IMG/VR virus record: IMGVR_UViG_3300008110_007313
Length of the DNA stretch: 64,000 nt
Strand: one strand, 5' to 3'
DNA from: a virus
Lineage: Duplodnaviria; Caudoviricetes
A program made the position numbers and the translations under genes. Position 1 is the first letter of the stretch. The number at the start of each line of letters is the position of its first letter. The notes under the pieces were generated by a model. It did no database searches, was not told the DNA's origin, and saw only the letters and a list, made by a program, of their open reading frames with translations. This document shows, piece by piece, positions 4,068 through 61,810 of the stretch.

Positions 4068-4507
4068 GCTCTGGCGTCTTTCAAGAAACTTCTCAACATC
4101 CAGCCATGCTTGCCGTGTGCATCAATGCGCTCAGCAATAAAGTTAGCAATGCCTTCTTGTTTTTCGTTTTGTGCGATTTCAAAGGTCTTGTTGAGTAAGT
4201 CTATCATTTGGCCATTGTTGGCCAGCAATTCTTCAATCATGAGTCGGGCACGTGGAATTTTAGTTTGGCCTGAAATAATTGACAGTTCTTGAAAACGTTC
4301 AAAACTGCCAGGTGTGTAATCTTCTAGTGTGCGTATGTATTCTGCTGTGCGGTCAATTGAGTTATTGTAGACTTCTTCGTAGATGCCCCCAAAAAATTCG
4401 TGCAGTTGAGCAAAGTCAGGACCCTCCACGTTCCAGTGAAATAGCTGGGCTTTGATTACGAATGCGTATTCAGTTGCCAGGAGAGTTTTTAAAGCGTCCG
4501 CTAACAT
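4064..4507 (-). CDS. dps: Dps / ferritin-like DNA protection protein
   Basis: AQLFHWNVEGPDFAQLHEFF...YEE...IDRTAEYIRTL ferroxidase signature and C-terminal HGKHGWMLRS. Start moved from 4567 to ATG 4507 (MLADALK). Confidence 0.9.
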   Translation of the reverse strand: MLADALKTLLATEYAFVIKAQLFHWNVEGPDFAQLHEFFGGIYEEVYNNSIDRTAEYIRTLEDYTPGSFERFQELSIISGQTKIPRARLMIEELLANNGQMIDLLNKTFEIAQNEKQEGIANFIAERIDAHGKHGWMLRSFLKDARA

Positions 4508-4682
4508 TCTTGTTCCTTTTGTATTCTTTCGGAGTATTGGGAGTAGGATCCGTGCTATATTTACCACTCAACAAGCTGCCGCCATTTCTTGAAACCGTGC
4601 CCATGGGCTGAGTCACAGTGGCCATACTGCCTGCGGCAGTGCTGCCTGCTGACGCTGTTTCCATGATTTCTTTAAATCTCAT
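4470..4682 (-). CDS. small hypothetical protein with capsid-targeting-like leader
   Basis: Begins MRFKEIMETA, matching the leader family seen elsewhere in the window. Confidence 0.6.
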   Translation of the reverse strand: MRFKEIMETASAGSTAAGSMATVTQPMGTVSRNGGSLLSGKYSTDPTPNTPKEYKRNKNVSGRFKNSPGN

Positions 4683-4962
4683 CGCGAATCCTTACCACGT
4701 TGTGTGCTATAAACTCTGCTGGTCCAGATATTACTCGTGGATTCTGAGCTGTCAAATGTGCATTAGTGTCAATCATTTCGTATTTGATCACATAGTCGCC
4801 AGGTACTGCATTAACGGGAATCACTTCTTCTAGATACGACTGCACAAAATTAAAAGTGCGTTCAGTAAACAGTTCTCCTTGCACATACAATCGATAACGC
4901 GGAGGCGGCCCTGCCCAATCGCAAAACACATCATACTGTACCTGAACACTTTGTGGCTTCAT
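4672..4962 (-). CDS. hypothetical protein
   Basis: 96-aa ORF with a TAAATA motif 4 nt upstream. Confidence 0.65.
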   Translation of the reverse strand: MKPQSVQVQYDVFCDWAGPPPRYRLYVQGELFTERTFNFVQSYLEEVIPVNAVPGDYVIKYEMIDTNAHLTAQNPRVISGPAEFIAHNVVRIRDEI

Positions 4963-4966
4963 ATGG

Positions 4967-4972
4967 TATTTA
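4967..4972 (-). promoter_or_regulatory. T4-like late promoter core TAAATA
   Basis: Minus strand reads GCTAAATACCATATG; the ATG is the start of 4672..4962. Confidence 0.6.
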
Positions 4973-5620: not shown

Positions 5621-5705
5621 ACGTTTACTTAATCTATAATTACACCCACTATTTCTTTGCTCTAAAGCAATAAATATTAGGATAATAATTATAAGGTGAG
5701 CAAAA

Positions 5706-9171: not shown

Positions 9172-9182
9172 AAGGAGAAAAA

Positions 9183-17500: not shown

Positions 17501-19850
17501 TGTTTCTCCAAAAAGAAACAGCAACTTCATAGGGAGTAGTGTGCTCAAACATTATGCTCAAGTGCGTACCATCGTCCAGTGTAGCCAGTGCATCATAATC
17601 TCCGTACTCGCTTTTTTCCCATTTGATAGGATAAGGTTGATCAAATGTTTCGGACACATTGTAAGTAGGATCTGTCTTGATCTTGCGCATGCCTGGGGGT
17701 TGCGTAGGATCAGCAGGATCGATATCAGTAACATCCAGCCCTGTGGCTTTGAGATCCTTGATAAACTTGTGTTCAGTTTCTTCATCGCCAAACGAAATAA
17801 CTGAACTTGGTGGTCCTGCGCCAAAGTCGTGCTTGCCCAGACCCTTCATGTTTGAAATATGCTGACCCAGTTTGTACCAGTCATACATGTCGCTGACATC
17901 AATTCGCACTGTGCCAGCAGGCATAGTAGGCGGCGTTTCAGGTCCCAGGGGTTGATTCAAATCTCTATACTTTCCCTGTCCTTGACTGGGCTGTGGCATG
18001 CGACCTTCGCGCAAGTTGGCAGTCTTCATCAGCAGTGCTGGACGACCTTGAGCATCAGTTTTCAACGACATTTTGTTGGCATTCTTGCCTGTAGCACCTG
18101 GACGAACATCGGGGCTAAGAGCCATCACAAAGCGTGGATCATTCTTTTCGGCATCAGTGGGAATGTAACCAGATGCTTCCGCAATGTCTTCGCGTTGATA
18201 CTGATTGCCCGTCCAAGGTTGTTGCTGTGGTTGTTGACGTTGTTGTTGACGTTGTTGTAGTTGCCAAACACGGCTTTGATTCTGTGCTCCGGGATCTCCT
18301 TGTTGAGCCCGTATGTAATTTTTAAATTCTTGATTGAGTTCTTCTTCAGCACCAGCACGAGTCACATTGTGTTTGAGTCTGTATAAGGTACGAGCAACGT
18401 TGAGTATCTGTATTGGATTTAGTTGCCCTTGTTGTTGAACCTGTGGCTGTTGATCTTGTGGCAAGTAGTCTTGTGCCTGTGCGGGGGACATAGCCACCGC
18501 CGCAGCCAAGGCAGCAGCAGCGCCGGCTCGACTCATAACGCCTTCGTCAATTTCTTGACGCATGAACAATTCTGGATGAGCATCAGCATAGTCACGCATG
18601 ACAATGCCGGCTATGGCATGCGCTTCGTTTTCATAATCGCTGCCGGTATCTCCGGCATCATCGGGTAGAGATTCACGTTGATTTTGAGCACAATGAGCTA
18701 ATTCGTGTGCAGTGGTCCGCAGGATGTCCAAGAGATGACGATTGCCCAGACTCACATGTAGCTCATGTGATTCGGGTTTGTACATTCCAAAACTCTTGTT
18801 TTGTTGACTCCATTCAGGATCACGATGCAGTTCTACTCGTGGCAGGCGTTGTATGCCTAATTTTTCAGCGGTGTCTTTGATAAAGTTTTGTACAATATCT
18901 TCATGGTCTTGGTCAGTTTCACTGAGGAATTCTTGAGTGTCTGGGCTCACGCCGTCCCAGGTACTTTGAGCTCCTGCATCACCAATGGCGCTGCCTTGAG
19001 CCATGCCGGTGTTATCTTCGTACATGCTTTCGCCGCCGCCATCGCCACCTCCGGCGTCCCCTTCGCTGCCAAATCCAAACCCAGGATACCAGTAACCGCC
19101 AAGTCCATAGCGCACTTTTTTCTTCTTTTTCTTGCGCTCTTGTAAACTGAGTTCAGCATCTCTAGCAGCGTTACGAGCGTCGATCAGTTTCTTGATATAG
19201 CCTTGATTGCGCAGAACTTTGAAAGCCAAGTTGTCAGACCCGTACTCGCCTTGTTGTTCGAGACCCGACTGTCTCATTGTTTTGATCTTTTTGTGCAGAT
19301 CTGTGATGCGTTGATAATCGTTGGATTTTACAGCATCATCTATCCTTGCTGCAAGATCTTCAACTTTACTGTGAACGCTGACATCATCTATTTCAGGTTT
19401 TCTGCGCTTGGGCACAGATACCCAGTTATTTTTTGACAAGCTGTAGATGCCCTGACTGTGATGTTCTTGATTGGGATCTTGTACATAGAGTTCAACATCG
19501 TACCCGCCTATTTTGATATTGTGCATGTCGTTGTACTGATACTTTTTAGCATCAAACAACTCGCGAAATACTTCACTACTGTCGGCTTCGGGTAAGTCTA
19601 CTACAAGATGTAGATCAATATCGCTGTTGGGGGTGTAGTTGTAGGCAGCATTGGATCCTGACACAGTGATGTCTTTGACATCAAGATCAGGTACGCCTAA
19701 AAATTCTTGGAAATCTGCTGCTATTTCCAGCAGTTTGCTTTTTACTTCAGAACGCAGGTGTTCGTTTTCGTCCCACAACCGGGGATTTAACCGGTTATGG
19801 AACTTTACTGAATCGCTGAGGCGGTAATTGTCTAACTCTGTGATATTCAT
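14568..19850 (-). CDS. 1760-aa multi-domain protein: polB-type nucleotidyltransferase, HExxH metallopeptidase-like, GNAT-like, amidoligase, C-terminal repeats
   Basis: SGSNAAYNYTPNSDIDLHLVVD; TAHELAH; GMEFEM...VEPDGSL...GLEFVSPP...STGLHINIS...KYTSIN...IEFRSPGG; five Trp-containing repeats at the end. Confidence 0.8.
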   Translation of the reverse strand: MNITELDNYRLSDSVKFHNRLNPRLWDENEHLRSEVKSKLLEIAADFQEFLGVPDLDVKDITVSGSNAAYNYTPNSDIDLHLVVDLPEADSSEVFRELFDAKKYQYNDMHNIKIGGYDVELYVQDPNQEHHSQGIYSLSKNNWVSVPKRRKPEIDDVSVHSKVEDLAARIDDAVKSNDYQRITDLHKKIKTMRQSGLEQQGEYGSDNLAFKVLRNQGYIKKLIDARNAARDAELSLQERKKKKKKVRYGLGGYWYPGFGFGSEGDAGGGDGGGESMYEDNTGMAQGSAIGDAGAQSTWDGVSPDTQEFLSETDQDHEDIVQNFIKDTAEKLGIQRLPRVELHRDPEWSQQNKSFGMYKPESHELHVSLGNRHLLDILRTTAHELAHCAQNQRESLPDDAGDTGSDYENEAHAIAGIVMRDYADAHPELFMRQEIDEGVMSRAGAAAALAAAVAMSPAQAQDYLPQDQQPQVQQQGQLNPIQILNVARTLYRLKHNVTRAGAEEELNQEFKNYIRAQQGDPGAQNQSRVWQLQQRQQQRQQPQQQPWTGNQYQREDIAEASGYIPTDAEKNDPRFVMALSPDVRPGATGKNANKMSLKTDAQGRPALLMKTANLREGRMPQPSQGQGKYRDLNQPLGPETPPTMPAGTVRIDVSDMYDWYKLGQHISNMKGLGKHDFGAGPPSSVISFGDEETEHKFIKDLKATGLDVTDIDPADPTQPPGMRKIKTDPTYNVSETFDQPYPIKWEKSEYGDYDALATLDDGTHLSIMFEHTTPYEVAVSFWRNNSQEVTGEGDAQRIFATVLAAIQQFLKQEQPANISFSAVKEDDPTGSRSKLYNKLVQRYAGTWGYQARSFDHDDKVEFELTKIRQNTDEDELVESLRQEFALLEDEFLGEIKMTGKNLRAEAAKTGAIAGMEFEMIVPNIEQDLEPEYEPDWDQDQRSRSFGDVRDFFYDGDYNSRRDADRLIEELDGEYQEWKQEQIAEAWERDGADYVRDYVANNDLFDRDEAMAQARDEIMDANPDLPPESEEFTELLSARLNEMETEFADTAFEDRGRIHDQAFEEFSDEQDEEYDERSFLDDKYQTMSDIQSNFDISWPHYYDINDGQDGEMDIDQVADDFSNSIGKPVNASRQYHGGRREAGHYVVEPDGSLEGDNPGDGGLEFVSPPMPIDEMISDLNKVKAWAKREGCYTNDSTGLHINISVPNYTLAKLDYVKLALLMGDEYVLELFGRSGNTYAKSAIGKIKTMLQRNPDIAPQVMDKMREHMEDIATKAIHSGTTDKYTSINTKTGYIEFRSPGGDWLDANFDKIENTLLRFTVALSAAIDPKAYRQEYLKKLYKLLEGSQTKGGPDVLQLFANYSAGELDKAALIRQVREKQLARNVEKGKVTGKMWWNVARPGYFASVEVVASSKEEAIEKGKQEYPDWRNARDMTATPLRPYQEPQTPEAAGPTLNGRPSNPNGRWIIIDRQDRETPVYRYAAADSNDAFSVLRQWIAANPGGEWMYAQDPTQRLGQPQAQQPAASTDQGNWGIWIINSNRFANQPGSYSRSETPPFYRFPTRAAAEQWIEQQRAERPNMRSDIEVREIEPAEPIPGSTLDLQRQRATANTSPDIDTLTPSGPGPWEVANRDNNQVYYNPPSSNPIEAESQSRTWLRQNGHNEADFEVRTREGVGGTDAAQGGIIDIGPDISPYNVPQTLTRPGQGQQTFTGEWQIVGPEGRVIYRFSGVGNNQGDANRVAMDWLRRNPQNMQAGVEVVPVMG

Positions 19851-32081: not shown

Positions 32082-33086
32082 TCAGCAGTTCCATTTACGC
32101 AGGGCCAGAGCCTTGCGTGTGGGCTTGCCGTTGGGCTTTTTCATTGGCCCTTTGACCCCTGACATTCTAGCGCAGAAACTCTTACGGCGTTTGGCAGCTT
32201 TTGATCCAGGCTTGAGTTTTGATGGTTTGGTAGTCACTGCCATTTGTAATTTTGAACCTGGGTTCTCTCTACGATAACTGGCCACACCTTTGGCGTTGAG
32301 TCCACCTTTTTTGCTCTTGCCTTCTTTTCTGCGCCAGGCCGCTGTTTCATACAGCACATTGTCCGGAAGTGCTTCAAAACTTTCCCATACCAGATCTTCA
32401 CTCACGCGATTCTTTTGGGCCATTTCTGACACTAGATCTTCCATGGCTTCGAACATCTCATCCACTTCCGGATCTACTTCGTCTGATGCTTCTTCTGAGT
32501 ACATGTAGTCCCACACAGTGACCAACATTGATTTGGCCACAGCAATCTTTTCCTGACACCATTCAGGCAAGTTATCACCGCTTTGAATTAACTCATCAAT
32601 GCCTTCTACAGCACGGCTCAGTGTTTCAAGGTTATTGTCGGCCATGCCTGCTTCGTCATCGTATTCAGGATTGTAGTCTTCTGCTATGCCTTGTTGACCC
32701 GACATATCCATCAGTTGTCGAACATAGAAATTATAATGACCACGACGGCTGTTGTATTCTCTATTGCCCAGCACAGTCTTTAATGCGGCCACAGCATCAC
32801 TTGCTTCTGAACCACGCATTATTTTTAGTGCGTCAGTCACAAGTGAATCCACACGCTGTGAACCTTCAGCTACCCCTTCTGACTTGTTGCCCCAGTTGCC
32901 AGCACCTTTTTTGCGACACTGTACCAGTCGACCCGAAGCATACGCTGACGGCCATACCTTGGCACTGGCTTTGACTTTGTGATAGCAAGCATCTTTCTTT
33001 TCTGCCAGGACTAGGTCACTGAATGCAGGACCACCGCACTTAGGGCAAGTCATTTGAGATTCGTTTACAAGTTGATTGATTTTCAT
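32082..33086 (-). CDS. modular protein of short conserved-looking acidic and basic domains
   Basis: Leader MKINQLVNES; modules DACYHKVKA..VWPSAYASG..VQCRKK, LPEWCQEKIAVA and AAWRRKEGKSKKGGLN...RRKSFCARM separated by GVAEG/GIAED. Confidence 0.7.
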   Translation of the reverse strand: MKINQLVNESQMTCPKCGGPAFSDLVLAEKKDACYHKVKASAKVWPSAYASGRLVQCRKKGAGNWGNKSEGVAEGSQRVDSLVTDALKIMRGSEASDAVAALKTVLGNREYNSRRGHYNFYVRQLMDMSGQQGIAEDYNPEYDDEAGMADNNLETLSRAVEGIDELIQSGDNLPEWCQEKIAVAKSMLVTVWDYMYSEEASDEVDPEVDEMFEAMEDLVSEMAQKNRVSEDLVWESFEALPDNVLYETAAWRRKEGKSKKGGLNAKGVASYRRENPGSKLQMAVTTKPSKLKPGSKAAKRRKSFCARMSGVKGPMKKPNGKPTRKALALRKWNC

Positions 33087-33430
33087 TTTTTCTTTGTGGC
33101 CACGTTGATGGCTGCTCCTTTGCGATTGGCGTCAGGATCTTGACGACGTTTGCGAGCCGCTGCACTTGCACGGCCTTTTTTGCCCAGGGCATGTGCCTTG
33201 GCTTGTGGTAAACACTTGGGTTTGCCTTCTGATTCTGAATCACGAGCACAGTCTCCACGGATTTTGCCGTCTGGACCAAATCGCACCCATTTTTGTTTGA
33301 ACCACTTGCGCAGATCTTCTTCAAGGTCTGCTTCGCTGATCTTTTTGCAACTGCCTGGTGAGTATTCAGCTGTGCCTGGCACACGCCGATAGCCCTTCCA
33401 ACAAGATTCCAGTATTTCTCTGTATCTCAT
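33083..33430 (-). CDS. small basic modular protein
   Basis: Leader MRYREILES; CWKGYRRVPG and EDLRKWFKQKWV...KPKCLP modules. Confidence 0.7.
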   Translation of the reverse strand: MRYREILESCWKGYRRVPGTAEYSPGSCKKISEADLEEDLRKWFKQKWVRFGPDGKIRGDCARDSESEGKPKCLPQAKAHALGKKGRASAAARKRRQDPDANRKGAAINVATKKK

Positions 33431-38941: not shown

Positions 38942-39157
38942 TTATTTGCCGGCAGCTCTTAGATTAGCCCCATTATTGAAGCTGGGACTGTAAGGACTGT
39001 TGCCCGGAATGTTGCCCTTGCGAGCTGACCAGTAGTAGCCTGCACGATGCCCCGAACAGTCCTTGGTACAAGGTGAGCCCAGAAAACTCAACTCATCCAA
39101 CTGTTCTTCTTGACTTTTTTTGATCTGGCGCCGACGCATAAATTCACGCAGTCTCAT
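38942..39157 (-). CDS. small Cys-containing protein with capsid-targeting-like leader
   Basis: MRLREF; LSFLGSPCTKDCSGHRAGYYWS module. Confidence 0.65.
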   Translation of the reverse strand: MRLREFMRRRQIKKSQEEQLDELSFLGSPCTKDCSGHRAGYYWSARKGNIPGNSPYSPSFNNGANLRAAGK

Positions 39158-40329
39158 AGTCCAGCCAACTCTTTGAGTCTGCGCACTGTTTCGCCCATGG
39201 TACCAGTCCTAGGCTGATCAAACATATCTGCTTGTCTATCAGCTCTGGCACGACTGATGGTAGGCAGCACATCATCGCTGCCAGCAGGCAATTCCACAGG
39301 TTCGTTGTACATATAGGTCACATTAGAATTGGGATCCTTGGTGACCTTGGGCACTCGTGGACCACGGTCCACTGTGGTAGGCAGCGGTTGATCACGCATA
39401 GGAGCAGTCTGAGTTGCAGCTGGTTGACTCTTGGCAGCAGGTTCAACTGGGGGCTTGATTCCAATTGTAGGAGGAGCGTATGTGTTAGTGTTGGCCGGCT
39501 TATTGATTTCTGTGTTGCGTTGATCTTTGTCTTTTTCTCTTTTCTTGCGACTGTCAGATCGGCGTGTTTGTCCAGATCCTGCAAACGCAGAAGGTTCTTT
39601 GTCGGCCTTGGGCAAATCAACCTGGCTTCGACTCACAGGTTCTTTGTTACCGCCCTGGCGCAACTGACGCTCCATGCCATCTATTTCGCGATTGAGTTGA
39701 TTGAGTTCGTTGTCGAGACTGTCATTTTCTTGATCTAGATTGGCGATCTGTTGGCTTTGTTTTTTGCTGAGATCACGTAGGCGATCTAGAGTTTGATCTT
39801 GACGAGCATTGGTTTTGTTCTGTGCACCAAAACTTTGGTCAGTGGTAGTTTGGTTTTCTATTTCGTTGCGTATAAACGCTTCTATGTCAGATCTAGCTGA
39901 CGGATACTTGGCATAGGCCTGACGCAGTGCCACACTGAGTTTGGGGTCTTTTACTCCTGATCTGCTGAGATCAGGTTGTTCTTTTTTTTCGCGTTCAAAC
40001 AGCCCGGCCTGTCCTGCACTCATGTTCACAGGCGTAACATTGAGATTGAGTCGGTCAGCCAAGGCCAAGAACTTGTCGGACCTGCTCATGGTGTTGTACA
40101 CAAAGTCTCGTTTGTCACTCATGTCCTGTAGCTGATTGTAGTGATCAGCCAAGGCATCCACTTCTGGATCGCTGAGTTTGATCACATCGTCGCCAAAGGT
40201 CAGCGTCAAGGTAGCGGCAGTTTTACGCCCTTGATAAAAATCAACCAGCATTTTGAAATTGGCGCCGCCAAGTGCTTTGCTGCCTACGGCTCCGTATTCT
40301 AACAGTGTAACAACGTCTGTGATTTTCAT
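39154..40329 (-). CDS. coiled-coil hypothetical protein
   Basis: 391 aa; central heptad-like region, Pro-rich tail; TATAAATA 5 nt upstream (40335-40342). Confidence 0.65.
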   Translation of the reverse strand: MKITDVVTLLEYGAVGSKALGGANFKMLVDFYQGRKTAATLTLTFGDDVIKLSDPEVDALADHYNQLQDMSDKRDFVYNTMSRSDKFLALADRLNLNVTPVNMSAGQAGLFEREKKEQPDLSRSGVKDPKLSVALRQAYAKYPSARSDIEAFIRNEIENQTTTDQSFGAQNKTNARQDQTLDRLRDLSKKQSQQIANLDQENDSLDNELNQLNREIDGMERQLRQGGNKEPVSRSQVDLPKADKEPSAFAGSGQTRRSDSRKKREKDKDQRNTEINKPANTNTYAPPTIGIKPPVEPAAKSQPAATQTAPMRDQPLPTTVDRGPRVPKVTKDPNSNVTYMYNEPVELPAGSDDVLPTISRARADRQADMFDQPRTGTMGETVRRLKELAGL

Positions 40330-40333: not shown

Positions 40334-40789
40334 TTATTTATAAGCAGTGCGATTGATGTTCAAGCGTTGCTGAAGTCTTTGTATAGCAGTGTCGGCTTTT
40401 TGTATCAAACTGGCATAGTTGTCTTGATCGGCACCTCGCATGTACAATGCTAAGTCTGTGTCAGCTTCTAGTCCAGGGTTCATGAGTCCGCGTTTTTCGG
40501 CCGCTGTTCGCAGTTTTTCCAGCTGTTGCATTTTGTCAATGGCTGCGTTTACTCCAGACAACTTGGTTTTGAGTTCTGAATAGCTGTATTTGCTATAATC
40601 TGTAGGTGGAGTAGGTGCCGGGCGTCCAGCCTTGGCAGTCATAAATCGTTGAGCCATGTTTTTCTCAAAATCCTGTTGCCAAGCAGCTACGTCTTGATCT
40701 CGTTGTTGTGTGATAGCACCACGAGCCTGTTGCAGAGCAGCCAGGGCTTCAGGTTTGAGTGCTTCTTGTAAAAATTCACTGGCTCTCAT
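40334..40789 (-). CDS. hypothetical protein with capsid-targeting-like leader
   Basis: Begins MRASEFLQEA. Confidence 0.7.
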   Translation of the reverse strand: MRASEFLQEALKPEALAALQQARGAITQQRDQDVAAWQQDFEKNMAQRFMTAKAGRPAPTPPTDYSKYSYSELKTKLSGVNAAIDKMQQLEKLRTAAEKRGLMNPGLEADTDLALYMRGADQDNYASLIQKADTAIQRLQQRLNINRTAYK

Positions 40790-41397
40790 TTTTTGTCCCG
40801 TGGTTGAACAGCAGTGGGCATGTTCTTGTATCTACGTGTGTTGGGGTCGTATACTGTCTTCATGGGACCAGCACCAGCCAACTTCTTGAGTCGGTTGACC
40901 ATGTCATCAAAGTCTGCAGGGTCGTGACGTCCACCAATTTTTTCCTTGGCACCTTCCATGTTGGCAATAGGTGCCACAGGAGCATCGGCTACATCCTTTT
41001 CTAACTGGCTGATGTCGCCTTCGTCCATTTCGTCAGGTTGTGCGGTGCTGTGAATTCTCCCGGTACCAGCGGTTGGAACAGCACCACTGGTACGAGCAAA
41101 AGGATCTGCGGGCAAGCGTTTGCTTTGTCCTTTGAAAATATCATCTCGACGAGTTTTTGATCCGTCACCGCCATAACCTGTGGCAGTTAAGTCTCGGCCG
41201 TATTCGCTGCCGCGATGAGCATTGTAGTAATCATCTCTGTCATAGTTGCCTTCCGCCACACCTTGCTTCTTGAGAATATCCAGTGCGTGTTTTTCCATCT
41301 GTTTTTTGGTAATAGGTTTACCGGGTGCTTCCTTACCTTTGAAATAATCAGAACCTTTTTTCACGACCTGGTTGTGGTGCTGACTTATCCATTTCAT
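40786..41397 (-). CDS. modular protein; probably the frameshifted 3' half of the upstream ORF
   Basis: Contains KQGVAEG and DEMDEG linkers; overlaps the upstream ORF by 50 nt around an A6 run. Confidence 0.55.
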   Translation of the reverse strand: MKWISQHHNQVVKKGSDYFKGKEAPGKPITKKQMEKHALDILKKQGVAEGNYDRDDYYNAHRGSEYGRDLTATGYGGDGSKTRRDDIFKGQSKRLPADPFARTSGAVPTAGTGRIHSTAQPDEMDEGDISQLEKDVADAPVAPIANMEGAKEKIGGRHDPADFDDMVNRLKKLAGAGPMKTVYDPNTRRYKNMPTAVQPRDKK

Positions 41398-41971
41398 TCA
41401 AGCCTTCCGCCACACCTTTTTTCATTTTGTCTAACTGCGTTAGTCTTGCGAGCTCTTGATCAGTCAAGGGGTTGTCTAACTTGGGCACCTTGGGTTTGAC
41501 GTTGGTGGGGTAGTATGCTGTTTTTGCACGATTTTTTGTACCAGGAATTTGTTGGTTGGCCACACGCACGCCTTCATCAACATCATCTTTTGCCGTACCT
41601 TGAGACTTTTCAGCACGAGCAATTCTATTGCCTAGGCTGTTTAACTCATGTTCCATGGCGCGAGCTTGACGCTCGCGATCAGTCAAGTTCTGTTCACGAT
41701 CTGCATACTGCCAATTATTGCCGCCCAGTGAGTCATACTCATTTTTCATTTGTTCGTATTTGGCTTTTAGTTCTGGCAATTGAGCTAGATCTGCCTGGGC
41801 AGCATTAGAGTCTGCCTGTGTTCGTTCTGCATCGCGCTGTGCCATGCGTTGACGACTGCGCTCACGTTCTTGTTCTGGTGTTCCAGCAATGCGAACATTC
41901 ATACCCCGGGCGCGGGCCATTGCTGCAAATTGGTCAGCTAGATTTTCTGTTACAACTTGATTTATTTTCAT
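41348..41971 (-). CDS. modular protein with leader MKINQVVTEN
   Basis: Ends GVAEGLNEMDKSAPQPGREKRF, that is, about 15 residues into a new module. Confidence 0.65.
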   Translation of the reverse strand: MKINQVVTENLADQFAAMARARGMNVRIAGTPEQERERSRQRMAQRDAERTQADSNAAQADLAQLPELKAKYEQMKNEYDSLGGNNWQYADREQNLTDRERQARAMEHELNSLGNRIARAEKSQGTAKDDVDEGVRVANQQIPGTKNRAKTAYYPTNVKPKVPKLDNPLTDQELARLTQLDKMKKGVAEGLNEMDKSAPQPGREKRF

Positions 41972-42510
41972 TATCTAATTCCTGCTAGACTTTGTAGCGC
42001 ACGACTTTCATCTGTGGGTTCGTGTATCTTTTTAGGAGCAATACCAGCAGCTGATCTAACATCATTTAGATCTTCGTCGTGCACACGACGATATTCGTTG
42101 GGCGTGCATGGCACAATCTTGGCAAACGCATCTTCGTCCCAGTCATAGTTTTGGTCTTGATAGCGCCAACGCCAGTCGCTGGGTTCAAATTCTGTAAGGG
42201 TGCCAAGGTCACTCAGCAGGTCCTGGATTTGCCCGGCCACTGCTGATCTACGACGCAATTCAACATACACTAGATAACGACTGGGTTTGATTTCACCAGG
42301 ACTACGGTCTGCGTCCAGCACAAAGTCATAGCCCTTTTCAAACCAGCTTACTAGGTCCTTGGCAGCTTGCAAATCTCTTACAAAAAAGCTCACAACCACA
42401 ATGTCAGCATCATCACCCATTTTTGAAGTAAACTCATCAATGTGAATGGTAGGCTTCATCATGCCATCTAGGTCTTTGTACTGTAGGCCTTCTAACAAGT
42501 GTTTGAACAT
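41971..42510 (-). CDS. hypothetical protein
   Basis: 179-aa ORF coupled on both sides. Confidence 0.7.
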   Translation of the reverse strand: MFKHLLEGLQYKDLDGMMKPTIHIDEFTSKMGDDADIVVVSFFVRDLQAAKDLVSWFEKGYDFVLDADRSPGEIKPSRYLVYVELRRRSAVAGQIQDLLSDLGTLTEFEPSDWRWRYQDQNYDWDEDAFAKIVPCTPNEYRRVHDEDLNDVRSAAGIAPKKIHEPTDESRALQSLAGIR

Positions 42511-43103
42511 TATATGGCTCCTGGTGCTGCGGGCTGTTGCGGTGTGGCTGCTAGGTTCTGTTGAGCAGTATCTGCTGCTGTATCGCTTTGATTTTCCTGT
42601 TTGTCTAGATCCTGCTCATAGGCTTGATCTAGTTCGTCAAGATCAATTTCTTGGTCTTCCATCTCAATTGATCCAGTCTTGATGTCATTCATCAGACTCT
42701 TGGGCATGATAATTTCTACCAACCATACAGGTTTTTCAACGATCTTGGCTTTTTTAGTGCCAGGTATGTAGTCTGAAGGATCTGTGATGCGAATAGGAAT
42801 TTTAATCATTTTCTTTTGATAGTTGACGTCACAGTCAAAAGGCAACAATCTACGGGCACCACGTGGATCAGGCATGAGTTTTTCGGGCCACATAAATGTA
42901 CAGGCCACACGATATTTTGTGATTTCGGGACCGGCCACAAGCTCGCCAATCTCCCAGTTTTTAAAGGCATACATATCTACTTCGTCCAACACACGCTCAA
43001 AATCTAGTAGCGTGGTAATTGTGCCCTCGCTCATGTAGATATCGCGGATATTGTCGGCGACTTGCCAGTAGTCTTCGTGGTTTTTAAATAGGTCTCGATC
43101 CAT
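42510..43103 (-). CDS. hypothetical protein with acidic tail
   Basis: 197 aa; TAAATA 7 nt upstream (43111-43116). Confidence 0.7.
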   Translation of the reverse strand: MDRDLFKNHEDYWQVADNIRDIYMSEGTITTLLDFERVLDEVDMYAFKNWEIGELVAGPEITKYRVACTFMWPEKLMPDPRGARRLLPFDCDVNYQKKMIKIPIRITDPSDYIPGTKKAKIVEKPVWLVEIIMPKSLMNDIKTGSIEMEDQEIDLDELDQAYEQDLDKQENQSDTAADTAQQNLAATPQQPAAPGAI

Positions 43104-44009: not shown

Positions 44010-44672
44010 ATGCTGGCCCAACTTGCCCACCCTAATTTAATCGTAGTTCACTACAGACCATATCAGGGTGGCAAGTTTTTCATCAACTGCCTTGCTCATC
44101 ACTACAAAGTAATGCCTCAGCTGGATACCAGCTGTTACCTGTCTGGTCAAGATTTCAAAATACAACAAATTCACAACAGTTTGCCCCCGCCTGAACACCT
44201 ACGCAAGTGGGAAAAATTCGAGTTGGGTTGCAGATCTTTTTGGGGCGGTAAGTTGACTGAATTGTTGCAACGTACACAACAACCTAACTCAGTGTCAACT
44301 GAATTGTTGAGTCAATACCGTTGTTTCATAGTCAATCACATGACCAATCCAGAACGCCTTGATCTAATTGATCTGAATCTGCCAATGGCCAGACACATTG
44401 TACTCACCAACGCTGATGAGTTTTGCAAGACGTCAATTGAGAAAAAAGCACCTCTGGACTATGATCCCAAGTTGTCAACAGGATCATTTGAAAGACACAT
44501 GTTTACAAACCGCAATGCATTTTTTCTAGATGTAGATTCTGCATATTCTAACTCAACACAATTGATTACGCAACTGCATCGGTGTTTGATCTGGCTGGGC
44601 GTGGATACTGAACTAGATCCAACAGTATCTCAGTTTATTGATCAATATCGTTGGCTTCATGGCCTACAATAG
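44010..44672 (+). CDS. hypothetical protein with sulfotransferase/P-loop-like N-terminus
   Basis: IVVHYRPYQGGKFFINCL resembles three other ORFs in the window. Confidence 0.55.
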   Translation: MLAQLAHPNLIVVHYRPYQGGKFFINCLAHHYKVMPQLDTSCYLSGQDFKIQQIHNSLPPPEHLRKWEKFELGCRSFWGGKLTELLQRTQQPNSVSTELLSQYRCFIVNHMTNPERLDLIDLNLPMARHIVLTNADEFCKTSIEKKAPLDYDPKLSTGSFERHMFTNRNAFFLDVDSAYSNSTQLITQLHRCLIWLGVDTELDPTVSQFIDQYRWLHGLQ

Positions 44673-51910: not shown

Positions 51911-54900
51911 TTACACCAAAATGTTCTGTTTGGGGAATACCAAATATTTATCGTAGGTTTCGCCTGGATTGTACATATCCACTGGCTCAATGAATTCCAT
52001 GCTACCTTCATCAAATATAGTTTCTGTTGTGACCACTGTGGCAAATGGTAGCCAGCTAATTCTAGACAGTCCAGTGCCGGGTGTGGTTGGTCGATACAGT
52101 TGTGCGCTGCGATATTGCGAACCACGACTGATTTGCACAAACTGATTTGGTGCCGTCTGTGTTTCTAAAGTACAGGTTACTATTTCAGTAACTGCATCTA
52201 CGCTAATTCTCCATATTGCCATGCGATCGTTGCCAAATTCGCCAACCAGGCTACCAGAGGCAGTGGTCAACGTTACTGGAACTGTACCGCCGGCACCACT
52301 GGTAATTCTGAAACGTGTTGCATCTACAATATCAAGTACATAGTAGATTTGGTTGCCTGTTGCAAAAGGAACAATGTTTCCAAATCCTGTACCTGTAAAC
52401 CAAATTATATCACCTGGTGCCATGTTGGCAGTGGAACTACAAGTTATTGCATTGGTTGCAGATGAAGTGGCAGTGCAGACAACCTGATAGCCGCCAGGCA
52501 CAGTAACACTTTCGTCGTATTGCTGTTCACTTAGGCCTGGTTGAGTCGCAGTAGGTCCTTGATCAAACAATCCACCATCATAGATGGTGTCATAGAGCTG
52601 CCAGCCATCTGTGGTAGTAGCATAGTTGGACCCAGGTGGGCCGTCGTAGTTCTCTTGTTTGACAAACACAATAGTGTCGCCGTTGATCTGTGCAATCTGT
52701 CCATCAAGTCCGCCAAGGCTGTTGATATAGCTGAGAGTTCGCTGATTTACGTCGCTAAATGCAAGATTGGTTGCAATGCTGACATTGCCAATAAATTGTT
52801 TACCTGCTGTATTGAATCGATCAAACGTGGTCAAGCTAGGTTGTGGCGTCCAGTCTTGAGTGGTAGTATCCCAATTTGCACTCAGTGCGCGGTCTAGTAC
52901 GTAACGATCAACTTTGAAATCAACTTGGTTGAGTTGTTGCCCAAACTGAGTAGCTATGTAATAGGCAATTTGATCGCCGTGTCCTGGATTAGCATAGCAG
53001 AGTACCCAGGCTGGTGTAAATCCCAACACTCGACCATCGGCTTGTTTACTAGTCATCCATAAAGGAAGACCAGTCGAAATTTGTCCCACAGTGTCAATTA
53101 CTTGATCTCTCATGTTGTCTAGACTGTTGGGATATACCGCAATGATTGATGTACTGCCATCTGCTGGGTCAGTTATAGCATATGGCAAAGGCACAATCTT
53201 GCTCACACTCTCGCCTTGGGGGTTGACCAAGTTGTCAATTATTTTGCTATAAACAACTTCATAGATAATATTACCGTCAGAGTCCACAGCACGAGCAGTG
53301 TTGATTTCGCCTAATACTAAATTCTTCCAGTAGTGATTGAGATACAAACTTTCTACGTAGGTTGACAGAGCGTCGGGTGCTAGACCAAAAGCATGCTGAT
53401 AGGTAACTTTAGATGCTTTACCAAAATTTGGATCAGTGGGTCTGAATATAAAGCTAGGCACAAAGATAGACTCATTGTCTAACAATGAAGCAATGAGTAC
53501 TCGGTCTTCAGCCGGAGGCATAGCCTCCACGTAGAGATTTTGATATGGTGCATTATACTCACGTACCACACGCACAGTAAATGTCTTGAACACGCTGACC
53601 ACGTCTCTTGTGCCGGTGGCCTGCATGACTGCGGTCAACGCAGCTCCTGTACCGCCAAATCCCTCGGCTACGGTGATTGTAGCAGGACCTGTATACCCAG
53701 CGCCAGAATTGCTAACTGTTACCGCAGTTATAGACCCACTGGTTACAGTAATATTTCCAACCTGAGCTTGTACCGCGCTGGCGCCAACGGGAGTTTCAAA
53801 AACAATAATAGGCAAATTGATTGAACTAAAGCCTGAACCACCGTTGGTTACAATCACTTCGCTGACGTTGTACAGTATTTGTTGAGTGTCAGGCGCATAG
53901 GCGTTGACAGTAAATTCAAAACTGCTGTCCCATGTAGTAGTATTGTTATCAAATGTGGTAGCGCCTAGATCAATAGCAAAAGTGTTAAAAGTTACTCGCC
54001 CTGCAATTTCGCCTGTGGGCAACAGTTCCAGCCCCTGCGGCAAACTGTTAAATGCACCAGAAGCCAATTTGTAAGACAGTTCTCTACCGCCGCGATTTAC
54101 AGCTTCTACTTGTAACAGACTGGTACTACCGTTGACAATTGTACCAAGATCTGAATCAGTGAGCCAGGTAATTTCGCTGTCAATATCGCCTGCTACAGTG
54201 AGAGTAAACGGAAATGGTTGGCTAGCAATCACTGTGCCAGCGGTCATTGCACCGGAAGAAGTAGTCAAGGTCAATGGTGTTGTTGCACTTGTGCTTGCAA
54301 CCACACTGAATTCGGTAGCACTGTAAACATGCAGTACATAGTATATGGTATTTCCAGCGGTGCTCAGCCCGCCTAGAGCTGTGCCTGACAGCTTGATAGG
54401 AATATACAGTGGAGCAGAGTTAGAAGGATACCATTCAGAAATGCCAGCCAATGGCGCGGTACTGTTGCAAGTGATCTTGTTGGTCGATGCGCTGGTCGAC
54501 GTACAGCTTACATTTGTTCCCACAGTTGCGGTCTGATAGACCACAATGTTAAAACTGTATTCAACTTCGGTTGTACCTTGATCAGGAATGTTACCATAAA
54601 ACCATCCAGTTTCTGGATCCAAGATCAAGCCAGGCGGCAATCCAAAACCTTCATTGACATTGATAGCGTAACTGATATCTTCGGTATCATAATCTTCGCC
54701 GATGAATTGATAACCATATTTGTTGGCACTACGTACAGTGCCCAGATCACTGGGAGAAGCATTGACCAGGAATGGTGCTCGACTGTTGGTTTCGTCTGCT
54801 GTAATAAATGTGTTGTCTGCGGTAAATGTTGTGTTGTCGGCAGTCATTTCGTTGCGAGCATACACAAACATTGTAAAAGATCTTAGATCACTGCTTTTAC

Positions 54901-55792
54901 CATCACTGACTTCAAGACTGAACTGATAATTTCTGCTGATAAACTCCACTATAAAGTCATAAGGTTCAGAGTCAGTGGAAGTAATATCATATCCTGGACT
55001 TTGATCCAGAGGGAAAGAAGGTACAATATAACCACTGATTAGACCAGTTGGACTCAATACCAAACCTGGAGGCAGCTGACCAGAGGCCAATGACACCACG
55101 GTGAGTTCTCCGGGATCTAAGTCAGTGTACTGAATTTGTATATTGACTTGGTCTCCATCATAGAACGTGCCAATGCTGCCTGCAGGAGTGGTAAATTTTG
55201 GCACATCGTTGCCGGTAATTGTTATCTCAAAAGTTCTGTCAGCAATGCGATCAATTGTGCCTAGTACAGTTTTAGTATAACTGCGAATTACAAATTTACT
55301 AGTCACATCCACAGCAACTTCTACAGGCACGCCTTGTAGACTGGTAATAGCTCTTGGAACTCCAGTCAAAGTTCCTGTGTCTGCAATCTGCAGACCGGTG
55401 GGCAATGCTCCAGCAATCTGTGTATAAAACACACGCTGGGAGAAAAACGCAGTCATATCACCTGAGTCGGTAGTCAGCGTTTTAGGTTGACTACTGGTTT
55501 CTGAATCACTGACTCTAAATTGTGTGGAGTTAATTACGTCATATACAAAATATTTGACTCCTGGTTGCAGACCACCGAACGTTAGACCAACGTTGCTGAC
55601 AAATTCTACTTGTAAGTTCCTATACAATCCAGCGGTGCTGGCACAGGTAATTGCATTAGTGGTTGCAGAAGTAGCTGTACAAACTGTGTTGGCCAATGGC
55701 GCAACTGTTGTGAGTAACGGTTGTTGATAGAATATACCTTCGGGTATGACCCCTAGACTGCCTGCAGGAGTAATCCACTGTGGTTGTGCCAT
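51911..55792 (-). CDS. large baseplate/wedge-type protein with putative Ig-like repeats
   Basis: Repeated W.T.AGSLG / LPPGL.L...G.ISG Ig-like units; three CTATS..TNAITC..T domains; 1293 aa. Confidence 0.7.
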   Translation of the reverse strand: MAQPQWITPAGSLGVIPEGIFYQQPLLTTVAPLANTVCTATSATTNAITCASTAGLYRNLQVEFVSNVGLTFGGLQPGVKYFVYDVINSTQFRVSDSETSSQPKTLTTDSGDMTAFFSQRVFYTQIAGALPTGLQIADTGTLTGVPRAITSLQGVPVEVAVDVTSKFVIRSYTKTVLGTIDRIADRTFEITITGNDVPKFTTPAGSIGTFYDGDQVNIQIQYTDLDPGELTVVSLASGQLPPGLVLSPTGLISGYIVPSFPLDQSPGYDITSTDSEPYDFIVEFISRNYQFSLEVSDGKSSDLRSFTMFVYARNEMTADNTTFTADNTFITADETNSRAPFLVNASPSDLGTVRSANKYGYQFIGEDYDTEDISYAINVNEGFGLPPGLILDPETGWFYGNIPDQGTTEVEYSFNIVVYQTATVGTNVSCTSTSASTNKITCNSTAPLAGISEWYPSNSAPLYIPIKLSGTALGGLSTAGNTIYYVLHVYSATEFSVVASTSATTPLTLTTSSGAMTAGTVIASQPFPFTLTVAGDIDSEITWLTDSDLGTIVNGSTSLLQVEAVNRGGRELSYKLASGAFNSLPQGLELLPTGEIAGRVTFNTFAIDLGATTFDNNTTTWDSSFEFTVNAYAPDTQQILYNVSEVIVTNGGSGFSSINLPIIVFETPVGASAVQAQVGNITVTSGSITAVTVSNSGAGYTGPATITVAEGFGGTGAALTAVMQATGTRDVVSVFKTFTVRVVREYNAPYQNLYVEAMPPAEDRVLIASLLDNESIFVPSFIFRPTDPNFGKASKVTYQHAFGLAPDALSTYVESLYLNHYWKNLVLGEINTARAVDSDGNIIYEVVYSKIIDNLVNPQGESVSKIVPLPYAITDPADGSTSIIAVYPNSLDNMRDQVIDTVGQISTGLPLWMTSKQADGRVLGFTPAWVLCYANPGHGDQIAYYIATQFGQQLNQVDFKVDRYVLDRALSANWDTTTQDWTPQPSLTTFDRFNTAGKQFIGNVSIATNLAFSDVNQRTLSYINSLGGLDGQIAQINGDTIVFVKQENYDGPPGSNYATTTDGWQLYDTIYDGGLFDQGPTATQPGLSEQQYDESVTVPGGYQVVCTATSSATNAITCSSTANMAPGDIIWFTGTGFGNIVPFATGNQIYYVLDIVDATRFRITSGAGGTVPVTLTTASGSLVGEFGNDRMAIWRISVDAVTEIVTCTLETQTAPNQFVQISRGSQYRSAQLYRPTTPGTGLSRISWLPFATVVTTETIFDEGSMEFIEPVDMYNPGETYDKYLVFPKQNILV

Positions 55793-58437: not shown

Positions 58438-58457
58438 AAATCGGAATCCTTGTGAAG

Positions 58458-58508: not shown

Positions 58509-58527
58509 TGGTGAGTTGGAGTGATCA

Positions 58528-60588
58528 ATGTCATATATTATCAATAATAGTCGCGGCAACATTGTTGCTGTTGTTCCCGATGGTACCGTAAACCAAGGAG
58601 CGACCAGTCTGAGTTTGATTGGGCAAAACGTAACAAATTACGGTACTGACCAAAACGAAAATCTAGTATTCTTGCTAGAAAATTTTGCCTCGCCTTCGGC
58701 ACCAAATCAGCCCATCCTAGGGCAACTTTGGTACAAAAGCGACGAAGATTTAATTTATTCCTACAGCACAGCCAATACCTGGCAAGCCTTGGTCAACGAA
58801 GCCTATGTGCAGGCACAAAAGATCAGTCCTATTTTTACAGGAGTACCACAGGCGCCTACTGCACCTGCTGGCACAGCTAACACACAGATAGCTACTACTG
58901 CTTTTGTAACCAACAGCCCGCAGTTTGCAGGCGCCCCAACTGCTCCAACTGCGACACTTGCAACATCGAATACTCAGATTGCAACCACAGAGTTTGTAAA
59001 AAATGTGGCCAACAACCTGGGCACTATGTCCCAACAAAACTTTAACTCTGTGGCCATCACTGGAGGTACCATTACTGGACTGTCTGCGCCCTTGCCAGTG
59101 TTGTCTGGGGGTACAGGAGCTCAAGATGCTATCAACGCTAGAATCAATCTTGGACTGGGCTCTATAGCCACACAAAATGCCAACAGTGTTGCTATCACTG
59201 GCGGCTCTGCCACAGGACTCACAACACTGTCATTGTCTAATCCAACTTCAGGTGCTGTTTTCAGCACTGGCGGATCGCTGAGTGCGGTGAGCACATTGCC
59301 TATTAGTCTAGGGGGCACAGGTGCCAGTGATGCTGCCAACGCTAGAATCAACCTTGGTCTAGGTTCAGGTGCGGTAACCAACATTGGTACCATTGCAACA
59401 CAAAATGCCAACAGTGTTGCTATCACTGGCGGTACAATAACAGGTATTTCTGATTTGGCCGTGGCCGACGGAGGCACAGGTGCTAGTGATGCTGCCAATG
59501 CTAGAACCAATCTAGGAGCCGCTGCTCTGGGCAACAACAGTGATATCACTTCTATCACAGGACTGACCACTCCCTTGGCACCCTTGTACGGCGGCACAGG
59601 TGTGTCAGGACTCACGCCCAACGCTTTGGTTGTAGGCAATGCCTCATCCAGCGTAAAAAGCATACTGCCAGGAAATGCAGGTAATGTGTTGATCAGCACA
59701 GGGTCGCAGTGGATTTCTCAGGTATTCCCTGACGCTGGAGGTACCGTGACCAGCATAGAATTTATAGGTGGCAATGGTATTCAAATCACAGGTATCAATC
59801 CTGTGACCAGCGCAAGTACTATAACAATTAACAACGCAGGTATTACACGCATCCAAGGACCTAACATTGCTCTCACATCCACAGGCGTGGAATTTGTGGG
59901 CAACGGCGTGAGTCAAAGTGGCAACGTATTTACATTTAGTAGCACTGGTGCTCAAGGTCCCATTGGTCCAACAGGCCCAGCAGGTCCGCAAGGTGCAGAG
60001 GGCGCTACCGGGCCACGGGGTGCCACAGGACCACAGGGCTTGCAAGGCGAACGTGGAATTCAAGGGGCGCAAGGTCTCACCGGTGCCACAGGTCCTGCAG
60101 GTCCTAGTTATACCTTGCCCACAGCATCATCTAGCACACTAGGCGGGGTTAGAATTGACGGAACCACAATTACCATTTCTGGATCAGTTATTTCTGCCAA
60201 CATGCCAACTGCTACAGTATCGACACTGGGCGCTGTTCGTCCAGATGGTACTACAATTAAAATCAGTTCAGGGGTTATTTCAGCTCCTACTGCTACAGGA
60301 TATACTATCGTTTTTGCCACAGCTCAAAACTGTGTGGGATTTTCAAACAGCTTTGAATGGAACAATTCTACAAACTATTTTGATGTGTTTCCGCCAGCCG
60401 GGTTTAATATGACTCAATTGCAGGGATTCATGGCCAGCATGAGCAAAATATTCTTTGCAGGTAATGTCAACCTTGACGATTCAATGAGAACGGAATGGGC
60501 TGTGCAGGCAGATAGAATTCGAGTATGGGTTCAAAATACTGAACAGCGAGATACACCGGCGGTTAACTACATAGCTTTTTGGAGATAA
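58528..60588 (+). CDS. tail fibre protein with collagen-like segment
   Basis: [15 protein letters not shown] x2; [10 protein letters not shown] and GGTGA.DA.NAR.NLG x3; collagen Gly-X-Y run. Confidence 0.8.
59947..60108 (+). repeat. collagen-like (Gly-X-Y)18
   Basis: [54 protein letters not shown]. Confidence 0.9.
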
Positions 60589-60592
60589 TTTA

Positions 60593-60952
60593 ATGTATTA
60601 TATTTGCGTAGAAAATGACCGTGTAACCGGTGTACTAAACTATGAACCCAACGTTCCGTCTTCGGTCACAGTTGTAGTGATATCAGACGAAGATCATGCC
60701 AAACTTGATCAAAGAACCCATTACTTTGACATACCCACATCAAGTATACAGCCTTACCCCCAGAGCGAACTTGACAAACTGGCTGCTAGAAACGCCAGCC
60801 TAGAACATCAGAAATTTTTGAACAATACTGACTGGAAAGTCATGCGCCACATAAGAGAAAAGGCCCTGGGCATACCCACAAGCCTTAGTAATGCAGAATA
60901 CTTAGATCTTGAACTAGAGCGTGAACGTCGCGCCGCTGCAATCACACACTGA
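60593..60952 (+). CDS. putative tail fibre assembly chaperone
   Basis: Directly follows the fibre gene; [15 protein letters not shown]...LELERER motif typical of such chaperones. Confidence 0.6.
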
Positions 60953-61262
60953 AGCTAGAACCGCATCCACAGGTGCTTTGTGCCTGTGGATTGTCAATCA
61001 CAAAGCTGGATCCCATGTCCGATTCGTCCCAGCGAATATTGGCATTTTGTAAGTACTGCATGCTCATAGCGTCTACCAACACAGTAACATCGTCGTAGGC
61101 AAAATCAAAATCGTCTTCGTTTTTGGCTTCGTCTAGAGTGAAGCCATATTGGAATCCTGAACACCCACCACCTTGCACAAACACACGTAGTTTTGCATTG
61201 GGGTTGTTCTCTTCTGCCAAGATGTCTTTCAACTTGGTAACGGCACTCGTGTCTAATTTCAT
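60942..61262 (-). CDS. A-type Fe-S cluster carrier (ErpA/IscA/HesB family)
   Basis: [17 protein letters not shown] and [14 protein letters not shown] motifs. Confidence 0.92.
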
Positions 61263-61810
61263 TATAGTCTTTCGTTACAAACGTCCCAGTCAATGATCTT
61301 CCAGATATTGTCTAAGTAACGTTCTTTGTCTGATTGATAATCCAGGGCCCAGGCGTGTTCCCACCAGTCTACTAGCACACAGATGTCGGTGCGCACAGCA
61401 TGATTGGCAATGGTCTTGATATCCCCGCCTGTGCTCAAGTAAACCCAACCTGATCCTTGGATCTTCATTGCGGCCTGTTTGAATTCTTCTTTGAAATCTT
61501 CCCAGGTTTTGAATTTTTCTTCTATCAACGCGAGTACTGCACCACGCGGTCTGTTGGCGCCTTTGGGAGCCCGAAGCTGAGGGAAAAACTTATTGTGTAA
61601 AAAACTGCCAGCACGATTAAAATCCGCATTGCCTTCTCCTGCATTGTAGCGTTTGGCATAGCCCTTGGCCAAATGCTCAAAATGATAGTCTATGGTTTCC
61701 TTGCTCATTACGGGTTCAAGATCTTTGACACCATAAGGTAAAGGGGTAGTTTCCAGTTTTGCCGGACGAGTGCTTGCTTCTACAAGATTGATGTGGTCAC
61801 GTAGTTCCAT
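61262..61810 (-). CDS. sod: Fe/Mn superoxide dismutase with an N-terminal extension
   Basis: LPYG..DLEP.MS.ETIDYH, FLHNKFF, GSGWVYL and DWWEHAW (metal ligands apparently retained). Confidence 0.88.

Follow-up and report, generated by a model that had tools for sequence, protein, structure and literature searches.

The window analysed here is a 64-kb stretch of phage-like DNA (IMG/VR record IMGVR_UViG_3300008110_007313) with a G+C content of about 45% and the majority of its genes on the minus strand, in which nine genes open with a common short N-terminal leader of consensus M-[RK]-x-x-[EDQ]-[FIL]-[IVL]-x-E. A first-pass annotation had proposed such a leader on about a dozen proteins. All twelve of these N-termini are present at their minus-strand starts, and nine of them stood when the 638 ATGs of the window that open an open reading frame (ORF) of at least 45 codons were scored with a position matrix trained on leaders from other contigs only, the window being excluded to avoid circularity; the starts at 19850, 61810 and 4067, in contrast, gave background scores. 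The nine occupy the first nine of the 638 ranks, and the genes that carry them, with lengths in amino acids (aa), are as follows.

4470..4682, minus strand: 70-aa leader protein; leader MRFKEIME at 4659-4682; score 18.5, rank 3.
13098..14024, minus strand: 308-aa leader-NUDIX fusion; leader MRAKEFAE at 14001-14024; score 15.9, rank 4; behind the leader come a NUDIX domain (about 13692-14000), a middle domain that begins at residue 131 behind IKE, and, behind LTE, a basic NFADGK module (13101-13271).
14021..14563, minus strand: 180-aa leader protein; leader MRAQEFVIE at 14537-14563; score 19.0, rank 2; body with a predicted ADP-ribosyltransferase (ART)-superfamily fold.
32082..33086, minus strand: 334-aa leader protein; leader MKINQLVNE at 33060-33086; score 13.1, rank 7.
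33083..33430, minus strand: 115-aa leader protein; leader MRYREILE at 33407-33430; score 13.4, rank 6.
38942..39157, minus strand: 71-aa protein with a partial leader, MRLREF; score 8.8, rank 8, little above background.
39154..40329, minus strand: 391-aa coiled-coil, low-complexity protein with a borderline leader, MKITDVVTLLE; score 7.6, rank 9.
40334..40789, minus strand: 151-aa leader protein; leader MRASEFLQE at 40763-40789; score 19.0, rank 1.
41348..41971, minus strand: 207-aa leader protein, charged and Gln/Arg-rich; leader MKINQVVTE at 41945-41971; score 13.9, rank 5.

In rank order the starts are 40789, 14563, 4682, 14024, 41971, 33430, 33086, 39157 and 40329, with seven leaders scoring 13-19, the last two 8.8 and 7.6, and the best background start 6.9. 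A comparison of N-termini with internal positions, which the first-pass annotation had put forward as a check, shows strong enrichment of the motif at N-termini: of the 79 gene starts, 6 carry MR..E[FI], where the frequency at internal positions predicts 0.05 (P about 1e-11), and 9 carry a looser pattern, for which the prediction is 0.18. Every regular-expression match is the first ATG of a real gene, and none belongs to a spurious ORF. The observation that the sequence following the leader differs in each case was also borne out by an all-against-all BLASTP of the protein bodies, which returned no significant pair, the best E value (0.008) falling on low-complexity sequence. The ending [ILVF]-x-E is present in eight leaders (IME, FAE, VIE, ILE, LQE, VNE, VTE and LLE), and the ninth, at 39157, lacks the Glu.

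Megablast of the 1760-aa gene of the window against cultured phages gave no match, leaving the window without a close cultured relative, and a search for relatives with the 391-aa protein found none. True relatives are uncultured IMG/VR contigs, namely L001 (214 kb, with a NUDIX protein 82% identical), L002, L003 and L004, the last of which is part of G002, a 349-kb record with a CheckV completeness of 97%. The head genes of G002 follow the T4 order, comprising portal, two small core-like proteins, gp21-type protease, scaffold and gp23-type capsid protein; the protease is a Peptidase_S77 (gp21-type, 80 bits), the gp23-type capsid protein scores 324 bits, and the scaffold protein contains repeated L-x-E sites. 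Since the T4 head module is present in T4 order in G002, the lineage of the window is, judging by gene content and order, that of a T4-like giant phage. Peptidase_S77 is encoded in all four records at least 92% complete that bear the modules described below (near-complete relatives of 320-355 kb). The leader is likewise concentrated at gene starts in G002, where a score of at least 10 is reached at 9 of 414 gene starts and at 1 of 2,088 internal Met residues (P = 7e-7), and seven of these nine genes lie within the region syntenic with the window.

Comparison of orthologues indicates how the leader varies. MRYREILES is identical in G002, where the 115-aa protein as a whole is 95% identical, and MRAQEFVIEA, MKINQLVNES and MRFKEIMETA become MRANEFVVEA, MKINQFVNES and MKMREIMETA, respectively; the G002 orthologue of the 71-aa protein begins MRASEF. 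Across 32 homologues of the 180-aa protein the leader takes the forms MRAQEFVIE, MKVTDIITE, MLVTDVITE and MKISDILTE, with Glu9 and Ala10 invariant, position 7 always hydrophobic and position 8 free. Because the leader spans these forms among the 32 homologues, its strict and its loose MK forms belong to one class; MKVTDIITE, which substitutes for MRAQEFVIE inside this one orthologous family, is the same variant as the type found at 40329.

The first-pass annotation had likened these N-termini to the capsid targeting sequence (CTS) of T4 internal proteins. In T4, the gp21 protease cleaves after Glu in L/I-X-E, and a protein can be packaged by virtue of the 10 N-terminal residues of IPIII alone (PMC9026906). 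The internal proteins of T-even phages are diverse and have the CTS alone in common (PMC9026906, PMC3012670), and a role of the CTS in allowing T4-like phages to take up a variety of proteins has been suggested (PMC9026906). In a control, a profile containing no T4 sequence was applied to the 1,070 ATGs in T4 positions 1-150,000 that start an ORF 60 or more codons long; ipIII ranked 1, ipII 2, gp24 (annotated as gp21-cleaved) 4, ipI 6 and Alt 16, and four of the five known short-propeptide substrates were thus among the top six (hypergeometric P = 1.4e-9). The likeness to the T4 CTS therefore holds quantitatively, through this control, the gp21-type protease of the relatives and junctions that match gp21 specificity. 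Both systems comprise a tag of about 9-10 residues at the N-terminus of otherwise unrelated proteins, a core E-F-[IV]-x-E whose last three residues form the cleavage motif L/I-x-E, a gp21-type protease with a gp22/gp23-type head module (seen here in the relatives), and small basic mature products, which are predicted in the present case. They differ in that the consensus here, MRAxEF[IV]xE, is one residue shorter than MKTYQEFIAE, that many bearers are multi-module proteins with further Glu-ending junctions and with NUDIX and ART-fold cargo, and that the family spans hundreds of uncultured contigs, its targeting and cleavage being predicted from sequence. The expectation that the tagged set would extend far beyond the T4 internal proteins is too high as regards number, since about 2% of G002 genes (about 9 of 414) carry the leader, a share close to that of T4; the differences from T4 are the modular, polyprotein-like build and the kind of cargo. 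As a separate observation, the NUDIX hydrolase gene nudE of T4 is located two genes away from ipII and ipIII (T4 65416-67490), and the window NUDIX gene lies among leader genes, which is probably a coincidence.

The modular build is most evident in the 308-aa protein, whose Pfam NUDIX domain (residues 9-111) starts directly after the leader and whose last 57 residues (NFADGK..., isoelectric point (pI) 11.5) have counterparts, 80-95% identical, in more than 595 IMG/VR contigs. L003 encodes the NUDIX domain and the basic NFADGK module in two distinct genes, both of which begin with a leader; in the window one gene encodes the two, linked through ...LTE. A protein search with the NFADGK module yielded 763 clusters in the stand-alone size range, all labelled 'hypothetical' and without a Pfam domain. 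Among stand-alone forms, 33 of 40 consist of MRAxEF[IV]xE followed directly by NFADGK. Where the module is internal, in 62 non-redundant proteins, P1 is Glu in all 62 and P3 is V, L, I or M in 50, with P2 and P4 variable, and 44 of the 62 proteins begin with the leader; a second set gave Glu at P1 in 109 of 109 and V, I, L or M at P3 in 100 of 109. The same joint rule applies to the DUF6321, DACYHKVK, DLRKWF, PCTKDCSGH, GRIVKGVNTT and KWSxKYK modules, which almost always follow hydrophobic-x-Glu, and the majority of which are seen in two contexts, immediately behind a leader and behind upstream segments of unrelated sequence. As modules follow the leader or unrelated segments alike, the leader end and the internal joints appear interchangeable, as a common protease site predicts.

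Other leader proteins of the window are built in the same way. The 115-aa protein comprises a Cys-pair segment and then a basic DLRKWF module after LEE (33086-33316), a module found elsewhere directly after a leader and also within a cyanophage virion protein. The 334-aa protein contains a DACYHKVK module after LAE and a basic DUF6321 module after LYE (32085-32345; Pfam DUF6321 at residues 256-332), and the 71-aa protein contains a Cys-rich PCTKDCSGH module after LDE, where it is conserved. The 70-aa protein, with orthologues in L001, L002 and G002, aligns with the G002 capsid protein (86455-87651) across the predicted cleavage junction (score 61, 29 residues), and its sequence after the Glu resembles the mature N-terminal arm of the major capsid protein (ASAGST.AG..AT); it may mimic the capsid arm or be a peptide of the vertex or the core. 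The 151-aa protein has no match in Pfam or PHROG. A structural model of the basic module predicts a small three-helix unit with a flexible leader, for which a fold search gave no match below E = 2. A tblastn search of the 68-aa stand-alone module against cultured phages was without a match, the low-complexity filter being the probable cause, and no mention of DUF6321 was found in the literature, coverage of which was incomplete.

Enzymes were among the proposed cargo; of these, the NUDIX protein and the ART-fold protein do bear the leader, but superoxide dismutase (SOD) lacks a canonical one. The AlphaFold model of the 180-aa protein has a pLDDT of 80; its residues 1-10 have a mean pLDDT of 39 and lie outside the fold, and the model of the basic module likewise shows the leader as a tail of low confidence that takes no part in the fold. 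In a VIA-align comparison with 48,161 chains, ART-fold proteins account for nearly all of the 50 best matches, with Z values up to 6.1 over about 110 aligned residues, and one of these matches is a domain from a pre-ejectosome protein of a cyanophage. Foldseek gave weak but consistent matches, mainly to PARP, RES and Arr. With Z below 8, the modelled protein is assigned to the ART superfamily at the level of fold only. R34, S44, Y77, R126, R131, S133, H158 and H161 are among the residues invariant in the 32 homologues, in which the body contains no invariant Glu and hence no invariant catalytic Glu; in an Atlas feature search all scores were below 0.8.

By analogy, this ART-fold protein would parallel T4 Alt, a packaged and injected ADP-ribosyltransferase processed by gp21 at both ends (PMC9026906). 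Both are ART-fold enzymes of T4-type phages with an N-terminal propeptide ending in Glu (PMC9026906), but Alt has 682 aa and the window protein 180 aa, without sequence similarity and with a fold call at Z of about 6. A further comparison is offered by the ejection or inner-body proteins of phiKZ, 201phi2-1 and SPN3US, which are cut by a diverged gp21 homologue after S/A-X-E (PMC9026906). These are likewise giant phages with many head-internal proteins processed after Glu, at several sites per protein (PMC9026906); they differ in having S or A at P3, against V, I, L or M here, in having no short common N-terminal tag, and in belonging to a chimallivirus-type lineage. Polyvalent proteins (Iyer et al. 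2017, cited in PMC7824862), as they are portrayed in that citing source, are also multi-domain proteins thought to accompany the DNA, with exchangeable effectors (ART, GNAT, nucleotide-acting enzymes). There they are very large single chains defined by domain content, whereas the bearers here are mostly small and have one leader and uniform Glu-ending joints.

A link to the virion comes from cyanophages. Homologues of the DUF6321 protein (32082-33086) occur in 541 records of cultured phages, mainly T4-like cyanophages, where the homologue is encoded between the terminase genes g16 and g17 (T4-GC 119; S-SCSM1 ORF29) and concatenates three modules (DLRKWF-type, DACYHKVK and DUF6321), after V-S-E or V-R-E. 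The cyanophage protein thus shares the same three modules, each after hydrophobic-x-Glu, but is a single protein without an MRAxEF leader, whereas the window splits the modules over the adjacent genes 33083-33430 and 32082-33086. ORF29 of S-SCSM1 is annotated in GenBank as 'virion protein'. Mass spectrometry of CsCl-purified S-SCSM1 virions detected 45 proteins (PMC9602691); ORF29 was not found by name in the supplement of that paper. NMNAT is an unexplained non-structural virion component in three cyanophages (PMC9602691). The S-SCSM1 NMNAT (ORF91, 38819-40048) starts with MKSFLQFLKE followed by A, ORF30 (44215-44535) starts with MKTFKQFMSE, and both N-termini resemble the leaders of T4 ipIII and ipI. 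The window itself encodes, at 21929-24598 on the minus strand, an 889-aa protein with a cytidylyltransferase/NMNAT-like HxGH N-terminus, a GNAT domain and no leader.

The leader is thus a real feature of nine genes. The reading favoured here, to which we assign a probability of roughly 0.6, is that it serves as a signal of the T4 type for targeting to the capsid and for cleavage, and that this use has been extended to modular polyproteins. Because the leader resembles the T4 tag for head loading and removal, the nine proteins are probably packed into the capsid; for the window proteins we infer targeting, cleavage and injection. The leader would bind the scaffolding core of the assembling prohead, so that the attached protein is enclosed, and a gp21-type prohead protease would cut after the Glu of the hydrophobic-x-Glu tripeptide at the leader end, the same protease cutting after hydrophobic-x-Glu ahead of internal modules. 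Cutting would free basic three-helix or Cys-pair peptides (pI 10.4-11.8) and enzymes (NUDIX, ART-fold) in the head, and these peptides and enzymes may exit with the DNA.

A broader version of this view, held tentatively and at somewhat less than even odds, is that leader and hydrophobic-x-Glu joints together form an environment-wide, combinatorial 'cargo polyprotein' system of T4-like phages, cut apart in the prohead. One address tag would serve exchangeable modules (hyper-conserved basic three-helix, Cys-pair, NUDIX, ART-fold and NMNAT-type), and each lineage would pack its own mix of DNA-bound peptides and ready-made enzymes, which, if true, would also explain NMNAT in cyanophage virions. 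The principle of the CTS is already known; new here are a joint rule that holds uniformly, a module family that is very large and unannotated, and enzymes as cargo. No literature linking the CTS with cyanophages, jumbo phages or metagenomes was found, in a body of literature incompletely covered, so that novelty is unproven. If the interpretation is right, T4 capsid targeting would be a general means of cargo loading in abundant uncultured T4-like phages and not a T-even peculiarity of three small proteins, and a simple rule (a leader, then modules joined by hydrophobic-x-Glu) would predict capsid-travelling proteins from sequence. It would indicate where the members of a large family of 'hypothetical proteins' (763 clusters in the stand-alone size range alone) are located and, provisionally, what they do, make packaged NUDIX and ART-fold enzymes candidate early-acting effectors, and supply a mechanism for the presence of metabolic enzymes in cyanophage virion proteomes; the leader might also serve as a portable packaging tag.

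Several observations weigh against this interpretation. The gp21-type protease is seen in the relatives only, the window phage's own being deduced from them, and the Glu with its preceding hydrophobic residue could simply belong to each module as its conserved border. NUDIX orthologues in G002 and L003 lack the second Glu, as does 39157, so that cleavage at these sites is doubtful. In the T4 control, ranks 3 and 5 fell to vs.6 and uvsY, which are presumably false positives. A genome-wide scan of S-SCSM1 found virion proteins at two of the five top annotated starts against about 0.8 expected, which is not significant; the two are the prohead protease and NMNAT, and leader-profile scores of about 10 in this phage lie in a grey zone. 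Late-promoter boxes are too few to show late expression: a TATAAATA box lies 5 nt upstream of the 40329 start, only two perfect boxes occur in the window, and the distance of 4-5 nt between box and ATG is shorter than a standard promoter-leader layout would allow. The genomes that carry the leader also contain ClpP and numerous radical-SAM genes; the co-occurrence of ClpP does not discriminate between readings.

The main alternative, though unlikely, is that these genes encode processed polyproteins without capsid targeting, the joints being cut in the cytoplasm, by a gp21-type or some other protease, and the N-terminal peptide acting as a propeptide or as a folding or inhibitory cap. The junction logo is cleavage-like and silent on where cutting takes place, and the window encodes other proteases, such as the S8 peptidase domain in 51911-55792. 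Against this, the leader matches a T4 sequence that is experimentally sufficient for targeting, homologous modules occur in a protein annotated as a virion protein, and proteases of the gp21 type become active inside proheads (PMC9026906).

It is quite improbable that the leader is instead an N-terminal recognition tag for a phage Clp machinery (ClpA/B-like AAA+ and ClpP), used for timed degradation or unfolding. One of the known classes of ClpX tag consists of Met-basic-hydrophobic N-termini, a gene of the window (26216-28489) specifies a 757-aa ClpA/B-type AAA+ protein, and all four near-complete relatives carry one or two ClpP genes. The same profile, however, picks out the T4 internal proteins, and no Clp genes occur in the 150 kb of T4 examined; cyanophage homologues occur in genomes annotated without ClpP, and Glu-ending junctions ahead of internal modules would be left unexplained.

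Less credence still is due to the idea of a recognition sequence like that of ribosomally synthesized and post-translationally modified peptides (RiPPs), by which a modifying enzyme, for instance a radical-SAM paralogue, would cross-link the Cys-pair modules before leader removal. Several modules have conserved Cys pairs, and G002 encodes at least 12 radical-SAM-like CxxxCxxC genes, one of which adjoins a 65-aa leader gene and another of which lies 3 kb from a leader pair. With about 16 radical-SAM-like genes in 349 kb, however, chance proximity is likely; distances range from 0.4 to 25 kb with no tight pairing seen, and genes so numerous make proximity to leaders uninformative. Moreover, the NUDIX and ART-fold cargoes are folded enzymes and not peptides, and the CTS proteins of T4, a phage without such a maturase, match the profile.

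The statement that the N-termini all start with ATGAGA is true of the six MR starts but unspecific, reflecting a general bias in these phages, in which AGA is used for Arg at codon 2 in 73% of leaders and 61% of non-leader genes, against 26% overall. Four of the six overlap an upstream stop as ATGA, and T-even internal-protein loci are thought to exchange via conserved CTS-coding DNA. A purely nucleotide-level signal (one that governs the initiation or coupling of translation, or a recombination joint through which cassettes are exchanged) without peptide function is nonetheless rejected as scarcely credible, because Glu5, Phe6 and Ala3 use the same codons as the genome at large, which argues for selection on the peptide, and because residues 3, 4 and 8 vary while the Glu and the hydrophobic positions are fixed.

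The three N-termini that are not this leader, together with a pair of structural genes beside the leader cluster, belong to the following features.

3330..4067, minus strand: 245-aa protein with the N-terminus MSSTDIRSIL...; the G002 orthologue keeps a different conserved N-terminal pattern.
14568..19850, minus strand: 1760-aa multidomain protein (nucleotidyltransferase, amidoligase); PHROG 36119 at residues 14-234.
41971..43103, minus strand: two virion structural protein genes (41971-42510 and 42510-43103); phrog_13138 (3e-17) and phrog_12928 (9e-29).
61262..61810, minus strand: Fe/Mn superoxide dismutase, extended at the N-terminus by about 20 residues; Sod_Fe_N from residue 22.

The starts at 4067, 19850 and 61810 had each been listed as a looser version of the leader, an assignment that their ranks of 87, 21 (score 0.3) and 78 of 638 do not bear out. 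The MNITELDN start at 19850 was rejected because it is the conserved start of the nucleotidyltransferase domain and is kept with that domain in G002 and L016. In the G002 SOD the first 11-15 residues are wholly different, and [LI]VE followed by ASTRPAK is retained; from this comparison the extension seems to behave like a propeptide distinct from the canonical leader. The two PHROG families of the structural genes both belong to the category head and packaging; these genes lie immediately upstream of the leader cluster at 38.9-42.0 kb, with the 207-aa gene directly downstream of them.

Among the other genes, the one at 28547-29362 on the minus strand adjoins the ClpA/ClpB-type double AAA+ gene (26216-28489, minus strand) and has, by eye, a J-domain-like N-terminus; the lineage appears to encode its own chaperone-protease set (AAA+, J-domain-like, and ClpP in the relatives). 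G002 shows a large expansion, to at least 12, of radical-SAM-like genes with a CN..C..C ... SS.W signature (examples at 22519, 26293, 27501, 28853, 31300, 137945, 139087, 150633 and 300708), of which the window has one copy (20812-22026, minus strand). The 1293-aa protein at 51911-55792 (minus strand) contains an S8 (subtilisin-like) peptidase region and has phage matches only in the jumbo phages Atu_ph07 and Phosso. Adjoining the SOD gene is a 74-aa ORF (61818-62042, minus strand), the start of which we take, by eye, to be like that of translation initiation factor IF-1. Finally, the 900-aa protein at 626-3328 (minus strand) has two LysM domains and is possibly a virion-associated peptidoglycan-binding protein.

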